This document shows positions 8,012-34,551 of a stretch of 34,551 nt of DNA, in pieces. Position numbers and translations under genes: made by a program. Position 1 is the first letter of the stretch. Each line of letters opens with the position of its first letter. The DNA comes from a virus (Duplodnaviria; Heunggongvirae; Uroviricota; Caudoviricetes): the IMG/VR virus record IMGVR_UViG_2778261031_000007, positions 1-34,551 of that record; one strand, given 5' to 3'. The notes below the pieces were generated by a model. The model was not told the origin of the DNA. It searched no databases and worked only from the letters and a program-made list of their open reading frames with translations.

Positions 8012-8971
8012 ATGAAAATTTGTATCGACGACGGCTCCACCAACATCAAGCTGGCATGGACTGAGAACGGCGAACGCCGCAACGCCATCAGCCCGAACAG
8101 CTTCAAGTCGGAATGGTCTGCGCCGTTCGGTGGCACGCATCCCGCGAACTACATGCTTGATGGCGTGCGCTATGGCTTTGATCCGGTCAGCGATCGCTTT
8201 GTCCAGACGACTGACACGCAATACCAGTACAGCGATGTGAATGTAATCGCCATTCATCACGCGCTGGTCAAATCAGGCATCACACCACAGGAAGTGGATG
8301 TGGTTGTCACCCTGCCACTGAGCGAGTATTTCGACACAAACGCACAGCCGGACATGGCCAACATCAACCGCAAAAAAGCGAACGTCATGCGCCCAGTGGA
8401 GTACCAGAACGGCGAAGCATTCACTATCCGTAACGTACGGGTTATGCCTGAATCCATTCCGGCTGGCTTTAAAGCACTGGCTGACATGAGTCCGTTTGAA
8501 TCCCTGCTGATTGTGGATTTAGGCGGAACCACGCTGGATGTGGCAAAGGTTCAGGGACAACTGGCAGGTATCAGCCAGGTGTTTTGCGATCCACACGTAG
8601 GCGTTTCTCTGATGGCCGATGCCGTACTGTCGGTGATGGCCACTAACGGTATGCGCACCAGTCACCACATCGCCAATACCATTATCGAACATCGCCATGA
8701 TGAAGCCTGGCTGCGCCAGCACATCCACAATGACGCGCATTACGCCAGCCTGATGGCGGTTATTCGTGAAAAGGAAGAAACACTGAAACAACGCGTGATC
8801 CGCGCGCTGGCGGGTTTTTCGGGTTACGGGCGGGTGATGGTTGTCGGTGGAGGGGCGGAGATTGTGGCACCCGCTATCCGCGAAGCCTGCGGAGTTAATG
8901 CGACTTTCATCGCGGACGGGGTGCCACAGTTTGCTCTGGTTAATGGGCTGTACGCAATGGACAAGGAGTAA
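8012..8971 (+). CDS. parM: ParM/StbA-type actin-like segregation ATPase
   Basis: 319 aa; IDDGSTNIKL, ISPNSFK, QYSDVNV, VHHAL, VMPESIPAG, DLGGTTLD, GGGAE and LVNGLY motifs collinear with recalled R1 ParM. Confidence 0.85.
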   Translation: MKICIDDGSTNIKLAWTENGERRNAISPNSFKSEWSAPFGGTHPANYMLDGVRYGFDPVSDRFVQTTDTQYQYSDVNVIAIHHALVKSGITPQEVDVVVTLPLSEYFDTNAQPDMANINRKKANVMRPVEYQNGEAFTIRNVRVMPESIPAGFKALADMSPFESLLIVDLGGTTLDVAKVQGQLAGISQVFCDPHVGVSLMADAVLSVMATNGMRTSHHIANTIIEHRHDEAWLRQHIHNDAHYASLMAVIREKEETLKQRVIRALAGFSGYGRVMVVGGGAEIVAPAIREACGVNATFIADGVPQFALVNGLYAMDKE

Positions 8972-8975
8972 ACCA

Positions 8976-9287
8976 ATGACGACTCCAACCAGACGGATAA
9001 GTTTCTATCTGAAGCCCGCCGCCGTCAAGAACGAAGGCGAAGCATGCGCCTGGCTGGACAGCCTTACACCAGAAGCCCGCAAAAGCGGCCAACGCGTAGC
9101 TTTTCTGGCCGGGCTGGCACTTCTGAAAATGAATCCAGCAGAGGCTTACCGACTGGCTGCATGGGCTGACGATGAGGCGTTATCAGTGACACAAACCAGG
9201 ACAGAGCGCCCCTTGTCACAGCCAGTACCAACCGCACAGATAACCAGTCAGATGGCTGGGAATATCCGGGCGTTGTTTCCTGAATAA
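8976..9287 (+). CDS. ParR-like small DNA-binding adaptor (call by position and size)
   Basis: 103 aa starting 5 nt after parM stop with AAGGAG RBS; same size class and arrangement as ParR. Confidence 0.45.
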   Translation: MTTPTRRISFYLKPAAVKNEGEACAWLDSLTPEARKSGQRVAFLAGLALLKMNPAEAYRLAAWADDEALSVTQTRTERPLSQPVPTAQITSQMAGNIRALFPE

Positions 9288-9332: not shown

Positions 9333-9929
9333 TCAGAATTTAGTATGCAATTTATCTACCAATCGCTTAGCCTCATTAAGTAGTTTTTGGTATTCCCTGC
9401 TATCGTTTTCCTGATCTTCATACGCTCGCCGAACACGCCATCGAAGAGCAAGGCATTTTAAGTTCCGGTAAAACCTCGGATTACGCTTGCGGCACTCTTC
9501 CATATAAGGTTCAAAATGGACATCAAGAAAGATTAAGGTAGAACCATAAACACGATATAGATACCGCTCATCATACAAACCGTTATTCACGGCATTAGCA
9601 CAACGCTCCCACTCATTAAAAATGAGTTTTAATGCTTTTGCTCCATCCGTTTGAGAATATTCCTCTTTTCCCCAATCAGCGATCGGAAAGTTATGGCGAT
9701 CCTTATGAATACGTAGCACTTCTGACCACGCATCGACTATGTCCTTGTTACGTTTATATGCAGCCTCGAAATCCAACGAATTTTTTTCGCGCGACGTTTT
9801 TCTTTGATTTCGTATGCTAATCACTGCAATAAGCGCACCCGCAGCTCCTGGATAAAACGTAGGGCTGGATTCCCAAATACTGGAAAAAATTTTTCCTATA
9901 TAACTAAGGGCAGAAAGAACTAGATCCAT
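9333..9929 (-). CDS. Orphan membrane-anchored protein (198 aa), unknown function
   Basis: ORF with one N-terminal hydrophobic helix (PGAAGALIAVISI) and a charged soluble domain; visibly lower G+C than flanking phage genes. Confidence 0.7.
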   Translation of the reverse strand: MDLVLSALSYIGKIFSSIWESSPTFYPGAAGALIAVISIRNQRKTSREKNSLDFEAAYKRNKDIVDAWSEVLRIHKDRHNFPIADWGKEEYSQTDGAKALKLIFNEWERCANAVNNGLYDERYLYRVYGSTLIFLDVHFEPYMEECRKRNPRFYRNLKCLALRWRVRRAYEDQENDSREYQKLLNEAKRLVDKLHTKF

Positions 9930-9942
9930 TGTATTTAACCAT

Positions 9943-9965
9943 AAAAAATGGGAGCCAAAGCCCCC
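9943..9965 (-). terminator. Attenuator-like hairpin plus U-tract immediately upstream of the 198-aa gene
   Basis: Minus strand reads GGGGGCTTTGGCTCCC then ATTTTTTA, ending 14 nt before the ATG at 9929. Confidence 0.35.
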
Positions 9966-9997
9966 ATTCTACTGAAACTACTCTAAAAAAACAGGAG

Positions 9998-10042
9998 TTA
10001 AACGTCCCAGTTTTCTTCGCTATAGATGCGGCGTACGGTCAT
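9998..10042 (-). CDS. Candidate 14-codon leader peptide (MTVRRIYSEENWDV)
   Basis: AGAGGAG RBS 7 nt before ATG; lies directly upstream of the hairpin at 9943-9965. Confidence 0.25.
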   Translation of the reverse strand: MTVRRIYSEENWDV

Positions 10043-10379
10043 AGTTAGTCTCCTCTTTTCAATCATTTAAACATCACTAATTTACTTTTAACATGGAGAT
10101 GGTTTTACAGTTGTCAACCACCTCCCCCAAATCTGTTGGGGTAAGCTATCACGCCTACCATACACATACAATGATGAGGCTATATCGTGTAGTCACACCG
10201 ATAAGGATAAGTTCATCTTCTTCGCTGCCTTAATGTGACCAAATATAGCACATTTGAAGCGATATACATCCTGTAATGATACTGCACAATAGTGCACAAA
10301 TTTGCACAATTTTTTTGAACGACTTTTTGCCCTTCCGGCCCGCGTGGCGGCTGGATCCGTCAGGGATCCGTGCGTGCAC

Positions 10380-10403
10380 AAAAAAACGCGCTTTTTCTGC
10401 GCG
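10380..10403 (-). terminator. Candidate minus-strand intrinsic terminator (CGCGC stem, then U7 on minus strand)
   Basis: Plus strand AAAAAAA-CGCGC-TTTTTCT-GCGCG. Confidence 0.3.
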
Positions 10404-10405
10404 CA

Positions 10406-10424
10406 GGTGACGGGGGAACAGCCC
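10406..10424. other. Candidate cos-like element (GGTGACGGGGGAACAGCCC)
   Basis: About 12 of 18 positions match the recalled P2/186 cohesive end GGCGAGGCGGGGAAAGCA; lies on the expected side of the portal gene. Confidence 0.2.
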
Positions 10425-10808
10425 GCGTTTCAGGGGGTAAATAGCATTCCCTGAACGATGTCGCAGCGACACAACAGAATGGCTGTATCGCTCACGCTGA
10501 GCCTGAAAAAGACGTAAGGTGTTCTGATTTGATGGGATGAAAGGTAAGGCCGTCAAAATCGCACTGAGGCGGCGAGAACATGCAGTCAGCGCGGCGGGAT
10601 TGTGTAAGAGTCTGGCCGTCGATGATAGCGATAAGTCGGAAGACGTCGTGAAATTATCTGATTGATACAGGAGCTGGAGAGTCGGGGCATAAATTTTTTA
10701 TGCCCCGGCGAAGCAGCAGACAAGCGAAGCGCGTCAGTGATGCGGCACCTTGCCGACCACACTTCATAAGTGCAAAATACGAGCAAAGAAATCAATGGAG
10801 GCTGTTCT

Positions 10809-11333
10809 ATGGTCATTAATTACAAGCAGTTACGAGAAAAACGAGATCAGGTAAAGGAGAGTTTTCGCCGCAATGAAGACCTGACCCCGCTTGTACGCAT
10901 TGCCCAGGGAATTGTTGATGCTTATGAAATCTCTCTGGAGCTGCCATCACAGACATGGACGGATAGCGACGGTAATCGCCAGCATTACGTTTCATGCGGA
11001 CTGGAAACGGCTGAAGGGTTTCGCAGAATGCCTTTATCTCAGATTCCTGCCGCTACCCCCAAAGCAAGGGGCGGCAATGATGAGCGAAAACTGATTTTCA
11101 GCATTGAGACAGTGGTTGACGACACACCTGGCGAAGTCGCCTTCGTGCATACTCCTCTTTCGATCGCAATGTATAACGATGAAATACAGGTTCGCGTTAA
11201 TAATAATATCGTGCCACTTAAAGAAGGTAATTCACCATACACCACCGTTTGTGAAGCCATTCAATATTACGTTCTCTCTGAAATTGATAATCTCAAGCCT
11301 GACGGCACCCAGAAAATGGTTCAACTCTGGTAA
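10809..11333 (+). CDS. Orphan protein (174 aa), unknown function
   Basis: GGAGG RBS at 10797-10801 with ATG at 10809 (track ORF starts at upstream GTG 10770); followed by a strong terminator. Confidence 0.65.
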   Translation: MVINYKQLREKRDQVKESFRRNEDLTPLVRIAQGIVDAYEISLELPSQTWTDSDGNRQHYVSCGLETAEGFRRMPLSQIPAATPKARGGNDERKLIFSIETVVDDTPGEVAFVHTPLSIAMYNDEIQVRVNNNIVPLKEGNSPYTTVCEAIQYYVLSEIDNLKPDGTQKMVQLW

Positions 11334-22556: not shown

Positions 22557-24575
22557 ATGAGTACCACAACACGAAAATTTAAAACCGTTATCACCGATAC
22601 GGGTGCAAAAAAATTAGCGCAGGCAGCCGCGCCAGATGGTAAGCCTGTCCGCCTGACTCATATGGCCGTGGGCGACGGTGGCGGTACATTGCCCACACCT
22701 GACAGTAAGCAGACCCGTCTGGTGCATGAGGTGTGGCGACATACTGTTAATCGCGTCATCCTGGACGCAACACATCAGAACCGCATTATTGCAGAGCTGG
22801 TTATTCCTCCTGAAACGGGCGGATTCTGGATCCGGGAAATTGGTGTATTTGATGAGCACGGCGATTTAATCGCGGTGGGCAATACTGCCGAAAGTTACAA
22901 GCCAGCCGTTGCCGAAGGGTCCGGTCGTGCACAAACATTTCGCACCATTCTGACCGTATCCAGCACAGCCACCGTGGCGCTTACCGTGGATAACACCATG
23001 GTGATGGCCACAGTGGATTACGTGGATGACAAACTGAAAGAGCATGAACAGTCACGACGTCACCCGGACGCCTCGCTGACCGCAAAAGGCTTTGTTCAAC
23101 TCAGTAGCGCCACCAACAGCACGTCTGAAACGCAGGCTGCAACGCCGAAAGCAGTAAAGGCCGCGTATGACCTTGCTAACGCAAAATATACCGCTCAGGA
23201 CGCCACGACGGCACAAAAAGGGATAGTCCAGCTCAGTAGTGCCACCAACAGCACGTCTGAAACACTGGCCGCGACATCGAAAGCGGTTAAGGCGGTAATG
23301 GATGAAACGAACAAGAAAGCGCCCTTAAACAGTCCTGCGCTGACCGGAACGCCAACAACGCCAACTGCGCGACAGGGAACGAATAATACCCAAATCGCAA
23401 GCACGGCTTTCGTTATGGCTGCGATTGCCGCCCTTGTAGATTCGTCACCTGACGCACTGAATACGCTGAACGAGTTAGCGGCGGCGCTGGGAAACGACCC
23501 GAATTTTGCGACCACCATGACTAACGCGCTTGCGGGTAAGCAACCGAAAGATGCCACCCTGACGGCGCTGGCCGGGCTTGCTACTGCGGCAGACAGGTTT
23601 CCGTATTTTACGGGGAATGATGTCGCCAGCCTGGCAACCCTGACAAAAGTCGGGCGGGATATTCTTGCGAAATCGACCGTTGCTGCCGTTATCGAATACC
23701 TCGGTTTACAGGAAACGGTAAACAGGGCTGGTAACGCCGTGCAAAAAAATGGCGATACCTTGTCCGGTGGGCTTACTTTTGAAAATGACTCAATCCTTGC
23801 CTGGATTCGAAATACTGACTGGGCGAAGATTGGATTTAAAAATGATGCTGATGGTGACACTGATTCATACATGTGGTTTGAAACAGGCGACAACGGCAAT
23901 GAATATTTCAAATGGAGAAGCCGCCAGAGCACCACAACAAAAGACCTGATGACGCTGAAATGGGATGCACTAAATATTCTGGTAAATGCCGTCATTAATG
24001 GCAGTCTTGGAGTTGGTACGACGAATGCGTTAGGTGGTAGCTCTATTGTTCTTGGTGATAATGACACCGGATTCAAACAGAATGGTGATGGTATTCTGGA
24101 TGTTTACGCTAATAGTCAGCGAGTATTCCGCTTTCAGAATGGAGTTGCTATTGCTTTTAAAAACATTCAGGCAGGTGATAGTAAAAAGTTCTCGTTATCC
24201 AGCTCCAACACCTCCACAAAGAATGCAACGTTTAATTTATGGGGTGTTTCAACCCGTCCAGTAGTTGCAGAGTTAGGCGATGAGGCAGGATGGCATTTCT
24301 ATAGCCAGCGAAATACAGATAACTCGGTAATATTTTCTGTTAACGGTCAGATACAGCCCAGCAACTGGGGGAATTTTGATTCACGCTATGTAAAAGATGT
24401 TCGCCTGGGTACGCGTGTTGTTCAATTGATGGCGCGTGGTGGTCGTTATGAAAAAGCCGGACACGCAATTACCGGATTAAGAATCATTGGTGAAGTAGAT
24501 GGCGATGATGAAGCCATCTTCAGACCAATACAAAAATACATCAATGGCACATGGTATAACGTCGCACAGGTGTAA
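22557..24575 (+). CDS. H: Tail fibre protein H (constant N-terminus, invertible C-terminal domain, current orientation)
   Basis: 672 aa; SSATNSTSET..A-T-(P/S)KAVKA fibre repeats; crossover site at 23689-23714 lies in frame inside the gene. Confidence 0.9.
   Translation: MSTTTRKFKTVITDTGAKKLAQAAAPDGKPVRLTHMAVGDGGGTLPTPDSKQTRLVHEVWRHTVNRVILDATHQNRIIAELVIPPETGGFWIREIGVFDEHGDLIAVGNTAESYKPAVAEGSGRAQTFRTILTVSSTATVALTVDNTMVMATVDYVDDKLKEHEQSRRHPDASLTAKGFVQLSSATNSTSETQAATPKAVKAAYDLANAKYTAQDATTAQKGIVQLSSATNSTSETLAATSKAVKAVMDETNKKAPLNSPALTGTPTTPTARQGTNNTQIASTAFVMAAIAALVDSSPDALNTLNELAAALGNDPNFATTMTNALAGKQPKDATLTALAGLATAADRFPYFTGNDVASLATLTKVGRDILAKSTVAAVIEYLGLQETVNRAGNAVQKNGDTLSGGLTFENDSILAWIRNTDWAKIGFKNDADGDTDSYMWFETGDNGNEYFKWRSRQSTTTKDLMTLKWDALNILVNAVINGSLGVGTTNALGGSSIVLGDNDTGFKQNGDGILDVYANSQRVFRFQNGVAIAFKNIQAGDSKKFSLSSSNTSTKNATFNLWGVSTRPVVAELGDEAGWHFYSQRNTDNSVIFSVNGQIQPSNWGNFDSRYVKDVRLGTRVVQLMARGGRYEKAGHAITGLRIIGEVDGDDEAIFRPIQKYINGTWYNVAQV
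23689..23714. repeat. gix/hix-like 26-bp invertase crossover site (left)
   Basis: TTATCGAATACCTCGGTTTACAGGAA; imperfect dyad; inverted copy at 26367-26392. Confidence 0.8.
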
Positions 24576-24578
24576 ATT

Positions 24579-25106
24579 ATGCAGCATTTAAAAAATATTA
24601 AGTCCGGAAATCCAAAAACAAAAGAACAATATCAGCTAACAAAGAATTTTGATGTTATCTGGTTATGGTCCGAAGACGGTAAAAACTGGTATGAGGAAGT
24701 AAATAACTTTCAGGACGACACCATAAAGATTGTATACGACGAAAATAATATTATTGTTGCCATAACCAAAGATGCCTCAACGCTTAATCCCGAAGGCTTT
24801 AGTGTCGTTGAGATTCCAGATATAACAGCCAATCGTCGTGCCGATGATTCAGGGAAGTGGATGTTTAAGGACGGAACTGTGGTTAAGCGGATTTATACAG
24901 CAGACGAACAGCAACAACAGGCCGAATCACAAAAGGTCGCGTTGCTTTCTGAAGCTGAAAGCGTTATTCAGCCACTGGAACGCGCTGTCAGGCTGAATAT
25001 GGCGACGGATGAGGAACGCACACGACTGGAGTCATGGGAACGCTACAGCGTTCTGGTCAGCCGTGTGGATACAGCAAATCCCGAATGGCCACAAAAGCCT
25101 GAGTAA
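24579..25106 (+). CDS. G: Tail fibre assembly chaperone G
   Basis: 175 aa, immediately after H. Confidence 0.85.
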
Positions 25107-25111
25107 AAATT

Positions 25112-25131
25112 AAGGCCCAATATCGGGCCTT
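25112..25131. terminator. Hairpin between convergent G and G' (AGGCCC-AATATC-GGGCCT)
   Basis: 6-bp GC stem between the two stop codons. Confidence 0.45.
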
Positions 25132-25134
25132 CTC

Positions 25135-25668
25135 TCATTCTGGTTGTTCGGGAAACGTTACTGGCAGGCTGGAGGTGTCTGTAGATTCGACTTTCTGCGC
25201 ATAGAGCATCCACTCGGTTAATTTTTGTTTATTCTCGTCGGAAATGATGCCCAGCCGTAGCTGTGAGTCCCATAGCTGGGTTTTATCCCTGACAAGTTGC
25301 AACAGGCTTTGCTTTTCATTTTCCGCTTGTTGCCTCTGCTCTTCCTCGGTATAAGTTCGCTTTATCACTACGCCATCTTTGAACAACCATTTCCCCGAAA
25401 TATCAGCCCGGCGATTTGCTGTAATATCAGGTAATTCAACGACGCTTGCGCCTTCCGGATTAATTGCTGAAACATCCTTTTCAATACAAATAATAACGCC
25501 GTTATGGTCATAGACCATTTTCAAAGTGTCTGGCTGGAAATTCTTTTGTTCCTCATACCAGTTTTTTCCATCATCTGAATAAAGCCATTTGATGTTAAAT
25601 TGCTTTGTTAGCTGGTATTGCTCTTTTGTTTTAGGGTTGCCAGCAGTAATGTTTTTTAAGTGCATCAT
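25135..25668 (-). CDS. Alternative tail fibre assembly chaperone G'
   Basis: 177 aa, paralogous to G ([22 protein letters not shown] versus [22 protein letters not shown]), inverted. Confidence 0.85.
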   Translation of the reverse strand: MMHLKNITAGNPKTKEQYQLTKQFNIKWLYSDDGKNWYEEQKNFQPDTLKMVYDHNGVIICIEKDVSAINPEGASVVELPDITANRRADISGKWLFKDGVVIKRTYTEEEQRQQAENEKQSLLQLVRDKTQLWDSQLRLGIISDENKQKLTEWMLYAQKVESTDTSSLPVTFPEQPE

Positions 25669-25670
25669 CG

Positions 25671-26381
25671 TTAAATACTCCCCGCGTTATACCACGTCCC
25701 ATTAATGCAATACTGAATTGGCCTTGCCTGTGTTGTATCAATTAATTCATCACGGTTTCCGTTAACTGAACCCGTAACGACATAACCTGACCTGTCAGAC
25801 CAGCCGGGACCATTCCATGTCTGAACAGATGACAGACCGCCAAGGCGAATACCTGTAATAAACCTTGAGTTACATTCTGCCCGCGTATATGCACCAACAT
25901 CTCCCGCTGAAGGTTTTCGTGTCGTGGTATAGAAATCTGACCAACCTAATTCAAACCCATAACCATCACGAGCCGACCTGTAGGAAATGCCACCATTTTT
26001 ATAATTCACACGGAATTGTACGGCAGGACAGCTACCAGCATTTATATTAAAGTGAAGAATTAATGCAGATGCACCACCAATCAGGGCGTTATATGCACCA
26101 CTATCCCAATTCCATCCAACGGATGTATCACCATTAACAGTATTACCTGTTTGTCGGAGTGCAAATGCATTGACATTTTTGGCACTAATTGAAATATCGC
26201 TAGAACCATCAAAACCAACTCCAGCAATTTTTCGTGCTGTTTTCAGCTTTGTTGCAGTAGCGGCATTGCCGGACAGTTCCCCAGAAAGGCCACCGCTGAA
26301 TGTTTGTCGATTGGTCCAGGTATTCGCTGTACTGAGTAACGGTATTTTCTCCCCGCTTGTGCCGAGTTCTCGTAAACCGAG
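25671..26381 (-). CDS. Silent alternative tail-fibre C-terminal cassette H'v (no own start; in frame with the crossover site)
   Basis: Hand translation from the crossover codon at 26381 is open for 236 codons to stop at 25671-25673; the track shows only the internal GTG-initiated part 25671-26009. Confidence 0.75.
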   Translation of the reverse strand, partial: LGLRELGTSGEKIPLLSTANTWTNRQTFSGGLSGELSGNAATATKLKTARKIAGVGFDGSSDISISAKNVNAFALRQTGNTVNGDTSVGWNWDSGAYNALIGGASALILHFNINAGSCPAVQFRVNYKNGGISYRSARDGYGFELGWSDFYTTTRKPSAGDVGAYTRAECNSRFITGIRLGGLSSVQTWNGPGWSDRSGYVVTGSVNGNRDELIDTTQARPIQYCINGTWYNAGSI

Positions 26382-26392
26382 GTTTTAAATAA
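26367..26392. repeat. gix/hix-like 26-bp invertase crossover site (right, inverted)
   Basis: TTCTCGTAAACCGAGGTTTTAAATAA; reverse complement matches the left site at 21 of 26 positions including the core ACCTCGGTTTAC. Confidence 0.8.
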
Positions 26393-26446
26393 TGGCCGTT
26401 TCTGGCCTGCATGGCATGATTTGCGCTTTTGGACGGGAGATTCAGT

Positions 26447-27046
26447 GTGCTGATTGGCTATGTAAGGGTATCAACAAATGACCAGAATACAGACCTGCAA
26501 CGAAACGCTCTTGTTTGTGCAGGATGTGAACAAATATTTGAAGATAAATTAAGCGGGACAAAGACAGACCGACCGGGATTAAAACGCGCTTTAAAGCGCC
26601 TTCAAAAAGGTGACACGCTGGTTGTCTGGAAACTGGATCGCCTCGGGCGAAGCATGAAACATCTGATTTCTCTCGTCGGGGAACTACGGGAGCGAGGGAT
26701 TAATTTTCGCAGTCTGACCGACAGCATAGACACATCTTCTCCAATGGGGCGTTTTTTCTTCCACGTGATGGGTGCCCTGGCTGAAATGGAACGTGAATTA
26801 ATTGTTGAACGTACACTGGCCGGGCTGGCGGCAGCGCGCGCAAGGGGGCGCACAGGCGGACGTCGACCGAAGCTGACAAAAGAACAGCATGAGCAAATAG
26901 CAAGGCTAATCAAAAACGGGCACGACAGAAAACAACTGGCAATAATTTACGGCATTGGCACATCGACGATTTATCGTTATCACCCTGTAGGCGATATACA
27001 GACTGAAGAAACAACCGGGCAGACTCAGGAAAATGAAAACCGCTAA
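26447..27046 (+). CDS. Serine DNA invertase (Gin/Pin/Cin/Hin family)
   Basis: From GTG 26447 (GGGAGA RBS): LIGYVRVSTNDQNTDLQRNAL N-terminus and GRSMKHLISLVGELRERGINFRSLTDSIDTSSPMGRFFFHVMGALAEMEREL core near-identical to recalled Gin/Pin. Confidence 0.9.
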   Translation: MLIGYVRVSTNDQNTDLQRNALVCAGCEQIFEDKLSGTKTDRPGLKRALKRLQKGDTLVVWKLDRLGRSMKHLISLVGELRERGINFRSLTDSIDTSSPMGRFFFHVMGALAEMERELIVERTLAGLAAARARGRTGGRRPKLTKEQHEQIARLIKNGHDRKQLAIIYGIGTSTIYRYHPVGDIQTEETTGQTQENENR

Positions 27047-33959: not shown

Positions 33960-34220
33960 ATGTTCCGTTGTCCGCTTTGTGGCGCATCTGCCCGTATCCG
34001 CACCAGTCGTCCGGAAAATGATTCAAACACCGTGCGGCAAAAGTATTACCAGTGTAACAACCTGGAATGCGGCGTATGCTTCTCAACACTGGAAGCCTTC
34101 CATAAATTCACATCGAAACACGCCTCCGGCGTTCACTCATCAGAAGGTATCCCGTGGCATGAGCTGCCAGCTTCACACAGGGGAAACAATCAGATGAGTT
34201 TGCCTTTACCTCAGAATTAA
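33960..34220 (+). CDS. ogr: Ogr-type zinc-finger late-gene activator
   Basis: MFRCPLCG...CNNLEC four-Cys pattern like recalled P2 Ogr; AAGGGAGG RBS. Confidence 0.85.
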   Translation: MFRCPLCGASARIRTSRPENDSNTVRQKYYQCNNLECGVCFSTLEAFHKFTSKHASGVHSSEGIPWHELPASHRGNNQMSLPLPQN

Positions 34221-34410
34221 CAGGCAGAATTGCCGGAGTAACAAAAAAGCGATAGATTACGCGCGGGTGCCTTTCGGCTGATGGTCGGAGGGAATACCCG
34301 AAGGCCAGATGTGGAAAGGCCCCGGAAAACACTTTTGTTTAACCGAGGCCCTAACCGTCTACCCTAAGCAAGTGAAAGGTTAGCGCCTCTCCGGAAAAGG
34401 AGCAAGTGCT

Positions 34411-34551
34411 ATGTCGCAAAAATCGCTTACAGCCATCACGTTCTGCGTGACGGTAATCCTCATCATCTGGATATTGCATGGTTCGCTGTGCGAAATACGG
34501 ATGAGCTTCTGGGGCGCGGAGTTTGCGGCGTTCTTACAGTGTAAGCAGTAA
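34411..34551 (+). CDS. hok: Hok/Gef-family type I toxin (46 aa)
   Basis: MSQKSLTAITFCVTVILIIWILHGSLCEIRMSFWGAEFAAFLQCKQ: N-terminal TM helix then SLCEIR and E-x-AAF as in Hok/HokA; AAGGAG RBS; window ends at its stop codon. Confidence 0.75.
   Translation: MSQKSLTAITFCVTVILIIWILHGSLCEIRMSFWGAEFAAFLQCKQ

Follow-up and report, generated by a model that had tools for sequence, protein, structure and literature searches.

A probable hok/sok-type toxin-antitoxin module carried as accessory cargo beside ogr in P88-like prophages of the P2 family

At the right end of a 34,551-nucleotide stretch of viral DNA (the whole of which is referred to here as the window), a short open reading frame (ORF) with the features of the Hok/Gef toxins lies directly beyond the phage gene ogr. 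Its position raises the questions of whether the ORF encodes a genuine toxin, whether the RNA elements of a type I toxin-antitoxin (TA) system surround it, and whether it belongs to the phage at all, as the original prediction left undecided between phage cargo and a flanking host locus. The analysis presented here suggests that this is very probably a type I TA module of the hok/sok kind, and that it is accessory cargo of a P2-family prophage resembling P88 (Xuanwuvirus, Peduoviridae), at whose right end it lies between ogr and the attachment (att) site. The features assigned within the window are collected in Table 1.

Table 1. Features of the ogr-hok region, in window coordinates
Feature	Position	Strand	Description
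ogr late-gene activator	33960..34220	+	PF04606 Ogr_Delta, 52.4 bits; last conserved phage gene before the module
Candidate hok promoter	34230..34258	+	-35 TTGCCG 34230-34235; 17-nt spacer; -10 TAGATT 34253-34258
Putative hok mRNA 5' end and 'tac'-like element GGGUGCCUUUCGGCUG	34265..34280	+	Deduced; Rfam sok match begins at 34265
5' stem-loop of leader (UGGUC..GGG-AAUA-CCC..GGCCA)	34282..34307	+	Conserved
24-codon leader ORF MWKGPGKHFCLTEALTVYPKQVKG	34309..34383	+	In frame with hok; TAG 34381-34383, 27 nt before hok ATG
Putative Sok-like antisense RNA, ~57 nt	34314..34370	-	Deduced from promoter and hairpin; variable single-stranded 5' tail, terminator hairpin, UUU
Sok terminator-like hairpin GGCCUCGG...CCGGGGCC	34318..34351	-	The two paired segments of the original prediction
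Candidate Sok promoter	34377..34405	-	-35 TTGCTC 34405 to 34400; 17-nt spacer; -10 TAACCT 34382 to 34377
Predicted hairpin masking hok ribosome-binding site	34382..34410	+	AGCGC 34382-34386/GUGCU 34406-34410; CUCC/GGAG, SD 34399-34402; MFE
hok CDS	34411..34551	+	ATG start, 46 aa; TAA is the final three bases of the window

The peptide encoded by the ORF, MSQKSLTAITFCVTVILIIWILHGSLCEIRMSFWGAEFAAFLQCKQ, joins an N-terminal transmembrane helix (hydrophobic stretch LTAITFCVTVILIIWIL, residues 6-22) to a C-terminal tail, SLCEIR...AEFAAFLQCKQ, that holds two cysteines and both of the motifs by which it had been recognized as Hok/Gef, SLCEIR at residues 25-30 and AAF at residues 39-41. It scores 29.1 bits against PF01848 (HOK_GEF; E = 7.7e-07; curated gathering score, 22 bits), with positions 5-42 of the 42 in the profile aligned, and 81 bits against PHROG 251 ('MokW-like host killing'). 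The NCBIfam HokA and Hok models both place it far under their cut-offs, and because its best NCBIfam match, HokA (NF007290), scores 32.3 bits against an equivalog cut-off of 89, we do not regard it as a HokA orthologue. Among the defence-system protein models of PADLOC-DB 2.0, no family matched the peptide at E <= 0.01. The good ribosome-binding site anticipated for the gene is a GGAG Shine-Dalgarno (SD) sequence 8 nt ahead of the ATG, and every one of the 30 aligned sequences has the ORF intact, at 46-47 codons. The peptide is under strong purifying selection, with a pN/pS of 0.066 among 19 closely related coding sequences and 0.27 overall. The leucine, cysteine, and glutamate of the Hok motif belong to the positions that over 80% of 1264 Hok peptides conserve. 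Toxicity may be presumed from homology: in an assay of 45 Hok homologues, described in a 2026 preprint by Escalera-Maurer et al., only three were nontoxic, and these belong to clusters other than 72 (10.1101/2025.08.07.668861). The 45 homologues assayed included 72_1621 and the Stx-phage type 72_1589 (10.1101/2025.08.07.668861), to which our peptide is 96% (44/46 residues) and 74% identical, respectively. By its profile matches, the ORF is a real member of the Hok family and is predicted to encode a membrane toxin.

For an ORF of this family, the surrounding RNA elements matter as much as the coding sequence, and several of the elements proposed here rest on conservation. A consensus scan for sigma-70 promoters and terminators returned no promoter and only one minus-strand hairpin; it missed the candidate hok promoter because only 8 of 12 consensus positions match, and the candidate Sok promoter matches at 6 of 12. 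Both promoters were placed instead through conservation across genomic contexts and through comparison with phage 933W. In the window, the hok -10 box is followed by 6 nt and then GGGTGCC, and the same layout (TTGNNN, about 17 nt, TAGATT/TAGAAT/TACAGT/TAGAGT, 6 nt, GGGTGCC) is kept in the unrelated upstream contexts of Stx phages, E. albertii, and C. braakii. Homology with loci that lack ogr begins at about 34229-34244 of the window and ends just past a 3' GGCACCC, limits from which we conclude that promoter and 3' fbi element mark the two ends of the mobile unit. The leader was further matched by the full-length Rfam sok model, RF01794, at 34265-34424, with E = 1.3e-10 and a score of 51.9 bits, below the gathering score of 59; as this match is to the strand that codes for hok and stops at the SD and AUG of that gene, it describes the leader, whose complement would encode Sok. 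As originally described, 190 nt separate the ogr stop (34220) from the hok ATG, while the description of this leader as GC-rich did not hold, its G+C content being 53.2% versus 52.9% for the whole window.

The hok mRNA is predicted to be closed by pairing between its two ends (mRNA positions convert to window positions by adding 34264). In the minimum free energy structure of the 401-nt RNA (-172.1 kcal/mol, z = -6.1), the first 15 nt pair with GGUCGAAGUGGCACCC, part of a 3' fbi-like element that lies about 65-82 nt after the hok stop, outside the window; this 3' part of the module, with fbi and terminator, was read from relatives that match the window at every position as far as its edge. The tac-fbi duplex is kept in 17 of 17 distinct 5'/3' variants, at -21.6 to -31.2 kcal/mol compared to -11 to -16 for shuffled sequences, with pairs 1-7/370-376 being 99.5% paired and the inner pairs co-varying (CGGCUGA/UCAGCCG, CGACC/GGUCG, CGAU/AUCG). 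Over 30 sequences, a hand-specified structure of 46 pairs is paired in 96.9% of cells, versus 32-51% for slid controls. Covariation support is modest, with double changes in 4 of the 46 pairs, as expected when the sequences are closely related and the structure was derived from the same set. The 5' stem-loop of the leader (pairs 18-22/39-43 and 26-28/33-35) is 99% paired over the 30 sequences with one-sided changes only. When the 3' 68 nt are removed, the 5' end is predicted to refold onto nt 46-58 (GGAAAGGCCCC), and the truncated RNA remains strongly folded (z = -5.5). The hok SD is predicted to be sequestered in secondary structure, and the inner CC/GG pairs of the masking hairpin are kept in the consensus structure of the 30 sequences. 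The folded hok mRNA leader proposed originally is thus borne out by the conserved 5'-3' closure of the mRNA.

Evidence for an antisense gene comes from the opposite strand of the same leader. The two segments first noted as paired, GGCCCCGG (34318-34325) and CCGAGGCCC (34343-34351), are both single-copy in the window and form the two arms of one hairpin. Folded as minus-strand RNA, this hairpin reaches -21.3 kcal/mol (z = -4.4), markedly better than the -14.1 kcal/mol (z = -2.5) of its plus-strand version; a U.G pair of the former becomes a C.A mismatch in the latter, and in these models the strand bias fits an antisense terminator stem and not a leader fold alone. Upstream of the hairpin, the candidate Sok promoter overlaps the hok SD region and the stop of a short leader ORF; AGGTTAG, which includes the complement of its -10 box, is invariant in 30 of 30 sequences, and its 17-nt spacer is constant. 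Reading down the minus strand from the -10 box, a conserved ACTTG is followed by a variable tail of about 22 nt, the hairpin, and UUU. The outer stem is kept in 14 variants and shows one compensatory change from G-C to A-U; RNAalifold applied to the Sok region alone found almost no covariation, the stem being invariant. The same TAACCT hexamer occupies the equivalent place in sokW of 933W and Sp5, where removal of the promoter abolished antitoxin activity (PMC8621323), and from a comparison of primer YO-421 with probe YO-597 we infer that the sequence mutated there was TAACCT. Together, the promoter, the hairpin, and the parallel with sokW place a Sok-like RNA at about 34370 to 34314, whose plus-strand complement is the Sok target, and by analogy we infer that a Sok-like antisense gene is transcribed at this locus. 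The antisense region suggested at the outset is probable, given the conserved minus-strand promoter and hairpin and the sub-threshold Rfam match.

What sets the module apart is its lack of a mok gene overlapping hok. No plus-strand ORF of at least 20 codons overlaps the start of hok, and the ATG that starts mokW in 933W is lacking both here and in 30 of 30 aligned cluster sequences; an overlapping mok is therefore missing, though the locus still looks hok/sok-like. The leader does hold a 24-codon ORF, whose ATG, preceded by GAAGG, is found in 28 of the 30 sequences, the exceptions being the two most distant relatives. In those 28 the leader ORF measures 1, 10, 15, 17, 19, 24, 61, or 79 codons, and the frames of 61-79 codons, which overlap hok, are found in three relatives (L080, L084, and L009 of E. 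albertii). It is possible that the 24-codon ORF is a truncated equivalent of mok, and, in the modeled fold, a ribosome ending at its TAG could reach the strand that masks the SD, giving coupling to hok. As a conserved peptide, the leader ORF was rejected, its length and frame being variable and its translation matching no family. We also found no evidence for stop-codon read-through joining the leader ORF to hok; the invariant Sok -10 box accounts for the TAG.

These observations bear on a reading in which the locus is the remnant of a hok system in decay, its mok truncated, its Hok untranslatable, and the whole retained as neutral baggage. The lack of any ORF overlapping hok would agree with such decay, and eight leader-ORF lengths, together with a long mok-like frame in three relatives, would suggest that frameshifting has occurred here. 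There is also a precedent, as several chromosomal hok loci of K-12 are reportedly inactivated, which Pedersen and Gerdes are said to have described in 1999. We nevertheless consider this reading quite unlikely. The low pN/pS of hok in the close clade and the intact ORF in every aligned sequence indicate strong purifying selection, and the locus is therefore not simply decaying; moreover, the start codon, SD, both promoters, fbi pairing, and Sok hairpin are all conserved, and about 29% of complete E. coli genomes carry the locus. Throughout the cluster, Stx-phage copies included, the canonical mok ATG is lacking, which makes its absence a trait of the family and not a recent loss.

Does this module belong to the phage? 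The gene content of the window is that of a P2-like myovirus, and over the ogr-hok region it is 95-98% identical to its nearest named phages, P88 (Xuanwuvirus, Peduoviridae), Chuche, PhiR44_2, and Citrobacter phage phiSM. In all four cases, the ogr-hok junction lies inside the deposited genome of an isolated phage, and P88 was obtained through mitomycin C induction (PMC5285337). Downstream of hok, Chuche carries com and the genes for a DNA methyltransferase and the integrase, in that order, and P88 and phiSM carry other small genes. In a set of 92 related loci, drawn almost entirely from IMG/VR contigs, ogr lies directly 5' of hok in 86, and the spacing between the two is constant at 193-195 nt (in tblastn terms) in 84.

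The boundaries of the integrated element were examined in two E. coli chromosomes, one identical to the window over the hok region (100%) and the other over its first 2.5 kb (100%). Both carry a prophage between pheL and raiA, and in both hok is followed by a TM2-domain gene, com, a methyltransferase gene, and raiA. In these relatives (L004 and L005), the prophage is flanked by a direct repeat, ACAAAAAACGCGCCCGAAGG[T/C]GCGTTG, which is the raiA terminator; the repeats lie about 90-115 nt to the left of the integrase stop, which corresponds to window position 1, and about 1.5 kb to the right of hok. When the empty site was rebuilt from the two outer flanks and one copy of the core, this attB, which is without hok, proved to be present over its whole length in 5273 of the 5426 complete E. 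coli genomes. Finally, an identical Hok adjoins ogr with the same spacing at three chromosomal sites (raiA, ytfP/tamB, and dsbB/nhaB), and in other relatives host genes (for example, serS/rarA or pheT) start shortly after hok.

A host chromosomal hok beside the prophage, with attR between ogr and hok, would be compatible with the lack of a visible att site in the window and with the several resident hok loci that E. coli chromosomes are generally known to hold (10.1101/2025.08.07.668861). It is a very improbable account of the data above, however, and for the relatives it is already refuted: their ogr-hok spacing is fixed, the junction lies within isolated phage genomes, the att repeats of relatives sharing the integrase end enclose hok, the hok-free empty site is intact in most genomes, and the same Hok stands beside ogr at three sites. 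An att core between ogr and hok, which the original prediction had named, together with synteny to a chromosomal hok locus, as the mark of a host gene, was not found in the relatives examined. Because of the isolated-phage junctions, the flanking att repeats, the hok-free empty site, and the three integration sites, we count hok as phage cargo, as read from the relatives of the window's element, and the choice that had been left open between cargo and host locus is settled in favor of cargo. Least probable of all, and with next to no chance of being correct, is the idea that the ORF and hairpins are chance features 3' of ogr, since, common as small ORFs (here of only 46 codons) and hairpins are, chance would not account for the Pfam, PHROG, and Rfam matches, for fifty protein relatives with E values down to 4e-22, for the z-scores of both full-length and truncated RNA, or for substitutions in hok that are mostly synonymous.

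The edges of the window also deserve comment. That the ORF ends exactly at the window edge, as first remarked, is true of the letters but is a trimming artefact and not biology: position 1 is the stop codon of the minus-strand integrase gene, position 34551 is the hok stop, and contigs ending at the same hok stop account for 19 of the 92 related loci, again nearly all from IMG/VR, from which we conclude that the coincidence is a by-product of trimming. Prophage callers that trim at gene ends split the hok module; its 3' fbi element and terminator, and about 1.5 kb of cargo beyond them, are lost, a loss seen repeatedly in public collections of viral contigs. None of the complete E. coli genomes matched the whole prophage (the best was 97.8% over 25 kb), and the integrase end and the hok end of the window have their 100% matches in different E. 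coli genomes.

By analogy with plasmid R1 and the prophage module hokW-sokW, the locus can be given a provisional mechanism. A weak constitutive promoter (34230-34258) would drive transcription, from near 34265, of a stable hok mRNA about 400 nt long, which at full length would be translationally inert, with its 5' end paired to fbi and the hok SD buried in a predicted, conserved hairpin. Slow 3' trimming would remove fbi and allow the 5' end to refold onto GGAAAGGCCCC (~34313-34323), a predicted rearrangement that would open the Sok target. As long as the short, unstable Sok-like RNA of about 57 nt is made from the minus-strand promoter TTGCTC-17-TAACCT, it would pair with the leader, block translation through it, and mark the duplex for RNase III. 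Hok would be made once Sok synthesis stops, which could follow when the prophage is lost, excised, or induced, or when an invading phage shuts off transcription; the 46-aa inner-membrane protein would then collapse the membrane potential and kill or lyse the cell. Without an overlapping mok, any coupling would depend on the 24-codon leader ORF, where the terminating ribosome would come up to the hairpin that masks the SD.

Three roles, each suggested by analogy and comparably likely, can be envisaged for such a circuit. Protection of the prophage against curing is the one that we tentatively rank first; a contribution to lysis and release after induction, as shown for hokW, comes close behind, and abortive infection, to which we give slightly less credence, would recall the exclusion of T4 by hok/sok that Pecota and Wood reportedly observed in 1996. 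A further proposal, which we think unlikely, is that Hok is controlled here in a mok-free manner, as a simplified R1 circuit in which a leader ORF starting just outside the 3' end of the Sok target, or Sok-triggered cleavage alone, gates Hok, and that the module polices a plasmid-like unintegrated stage of the phage, as hinted at by ParM/ParR.

Relatives of the locus occur in 1591 of 5426 complete E. coli genomes (~29%), with the ogr junction in 1164 of these, and the exact Hok protein is indexed in 1893 blocks of a public collection. Stx2a phages also have this Hok cluster, as a moron within their tail region. The element is common, ordinary, and already annotated, and the missing overlapping mok is its only unusual trait. 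RefSeq lists WP_000078918.1, 'Hok/Gef family protein', at the 100%-identical locus of strain KOr024, and 'Hok/Gef family protein' beside ogr across the matches sampled; the P88 product YP_009113095.1 is annotated as 'hok/gef family protein' or 'MokW-like host killing'. For annotation, our results mean that the gene after ogr is to be read as phage cargo with a probably complete regulatory module and not as a stray ORF or a host gene, and past this correction their importance is slight. They may hold modest interest for the type I TA field, as they describe a widespread Hok cluster without mok and the exact limits of a mobile unit running from promoter to fbi, which together could be used as a natural experiment on the extent to which mok is required.

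Several known systems are close to this module. Its Hok is a member of Hok cluster 72, with no essential difference, and the preprint describing that cluster covered the coding sequence only, leaving Mok, Sok, and mRNA structure unannotated (10.1101/2025.08.07.668861). In P88, Chuche, PhiR44_2, and phiSM, hok is likewise placed after ogr. Identity to Hok of R1, HokA-E, and HokW ranges from 24 to 41%, the nearest classical Hok being HokA of E. coli K-12 (41%), with which it has a common ...SLCE...AAFL(A/Q)CK tail.

The hokW-sokW module of 933W and Sp5 is the subject of the single experimental study of a prophage-borne hok/sok (PMC8621323). In Sp5 it is a working type I TA system: after induction, Sok is lost and Hok is made, lysis occurs earlier, and two-fold more phage is released (PMC8621323). 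Its order of elements is shared with the module described here, namely a TAGAAT promoter, a GCGGGTGC 5' end, GCCCC...GAGGC...AGGTTAGCC...GGAG-ATG, a 3' GGGGGAG hairpin, and GGCA(U/C)CC, and in 933W a sokW misc_RNA is annotated at the place equivalent to our putative Sok-like RNA, with TAACCT as the -10 hexamer there and as the candidate -10 box here. The two differ in that 933W mokW is an in-frame N-terminal extension of 19 codons starting inside the GAGGC hairpin, at an ATG that is absent here. HokW is 51 aa long and about 30% identical to this 46-aa Hok, and its host phage is lambdoid (Stx2 prophage Sp5 or 933W), whereas the phage considered here is P2-like.

In plasmid R1, as worked out by the Gerdes laboratory, a stable hok mRNA is closed by tac-fbi pairing and activated by a tac-ucb switch, Sok acts through mok, and the documented role of hok/sok is post-segregational killing. 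The Hok of R1 (52 aa) is 30% identical to ours, and R1 depends on a 70-codon mok that overlaps hok and starts in the Sok target, a frame that is absent here; the R1 module is borne by a plasmid and this one by a phage. P88-like phages also carry a ParM/ParR partition system and, with both it and the hok/sok module, hold both plasmid-R1-type stability functions. The two modules are nonetheless alike in having, here by prediction, a folded toxin mRNA closed by tac-fbi, a masked SD, and a membrane toxin with the L-C-E residues; the antisense RNA from the R1 leader has a putative equivalent here, and the predicted 5' refolding of the truncated hok RNA resembles the tac-ucb switch of R1 (hok/mok/sok, parB).

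A cargo island of variable content separates hok from the attachment site; among 67 loci, at least 12 different contexts follow hok. In some relatives it holds genes for a TM2-domain protein, Com and an N6/N4 DNA methyltransferase, in others genes for a zinc-ribbon membrane protein and a 297-aa repeat protein (TagO by the annotation of Citrobacter phage phiSM) or other small genes, and in others there is no cargo at all, host serS/rarA or pheT following directly after hok. The window has stop codons at both ends, those of the integrase (position 1) and of hok (34551), and this hok stop is also the end of 19 of the 92 related loci. Trimming at prophage boundaries systematically cuts off the hok 3' UTR, with its terminator and fbi, the 3' element predicted to pair with the mRNA 5' end, and also loses up to ~1.5 kb of cargo preceding attR.

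Record titles in genome_contigs (L006, L007 and L010) place near-identical copies of the E. coli-type ogr-hok locus in a Planococcaceae MAG and in Vagococcus sp., and Xanthomonas pisi is the title organism of a record with a hok copy. Rather than pointing to true hosts, these records most likely stem from contamination with, or misbinning of, enterobacterial contigs.

In three relatives (L080, L084 and the E. albertii locus L009, 2854-3215), the Sok hairpin, the terminator-like stem of the inferred antisense RNA gene, carries single-nucleotide indels in its loop that bring the leader ATG into a frame of 61-79 codons overlapping hok; the leader ORF of the window is frameshifted to 24 codons. 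The long frame lies in the same frame relative to hok as mok of plasmid R1.

Features of the window and cargo islands of related loci
Feature	Location	Strand	Family match
ParM	8012-8971	+	PF06406 (274 bits), PF21523 (230 bits)
ParR/StbB-like 'Plasmid_stab_B' protein	8976-9287	+	PF10784 (86 bits)
DUF4760 protein	9333-9929	-	PF15956 (87 bits)
187-aa ORF	10770-11333		none
30-nt inverted repeat, gix/cix crossover site-like	23685-23714 / 26367-26396		
Serine invertase gene	26429-27046		PF00239 (171 bits)
Cargo island, L004	39567-41238		
Cargo island, L001	4653-6133		
Cargo island, L003	3653-5147		

Between the partition and portal genes sit the DUF4760 gene and the 187-aa ORF (9333-11333), in the region that holds old/tin-type defence cargo in P2; neither product has a PADLOC match. 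The ParM and ParR/StbB-like genes are annotated in relatives too and, together with hok/sok, hint that phage DNA is actively segregated or has an episomal stage.

The arms of the 30-nt repeat enclose assembly genes and alternative 3' segments of the tail fibre, carried on opposite strands, and the region 23685-27046 looks like an invertible host-range segment, resembling the Mu G and P1 C segments. Because a ParM/ParR-like pair accompanies hok/sok, this P2-like prophage combines both types of plasmid-R1 stability function, partition and hok/sok.
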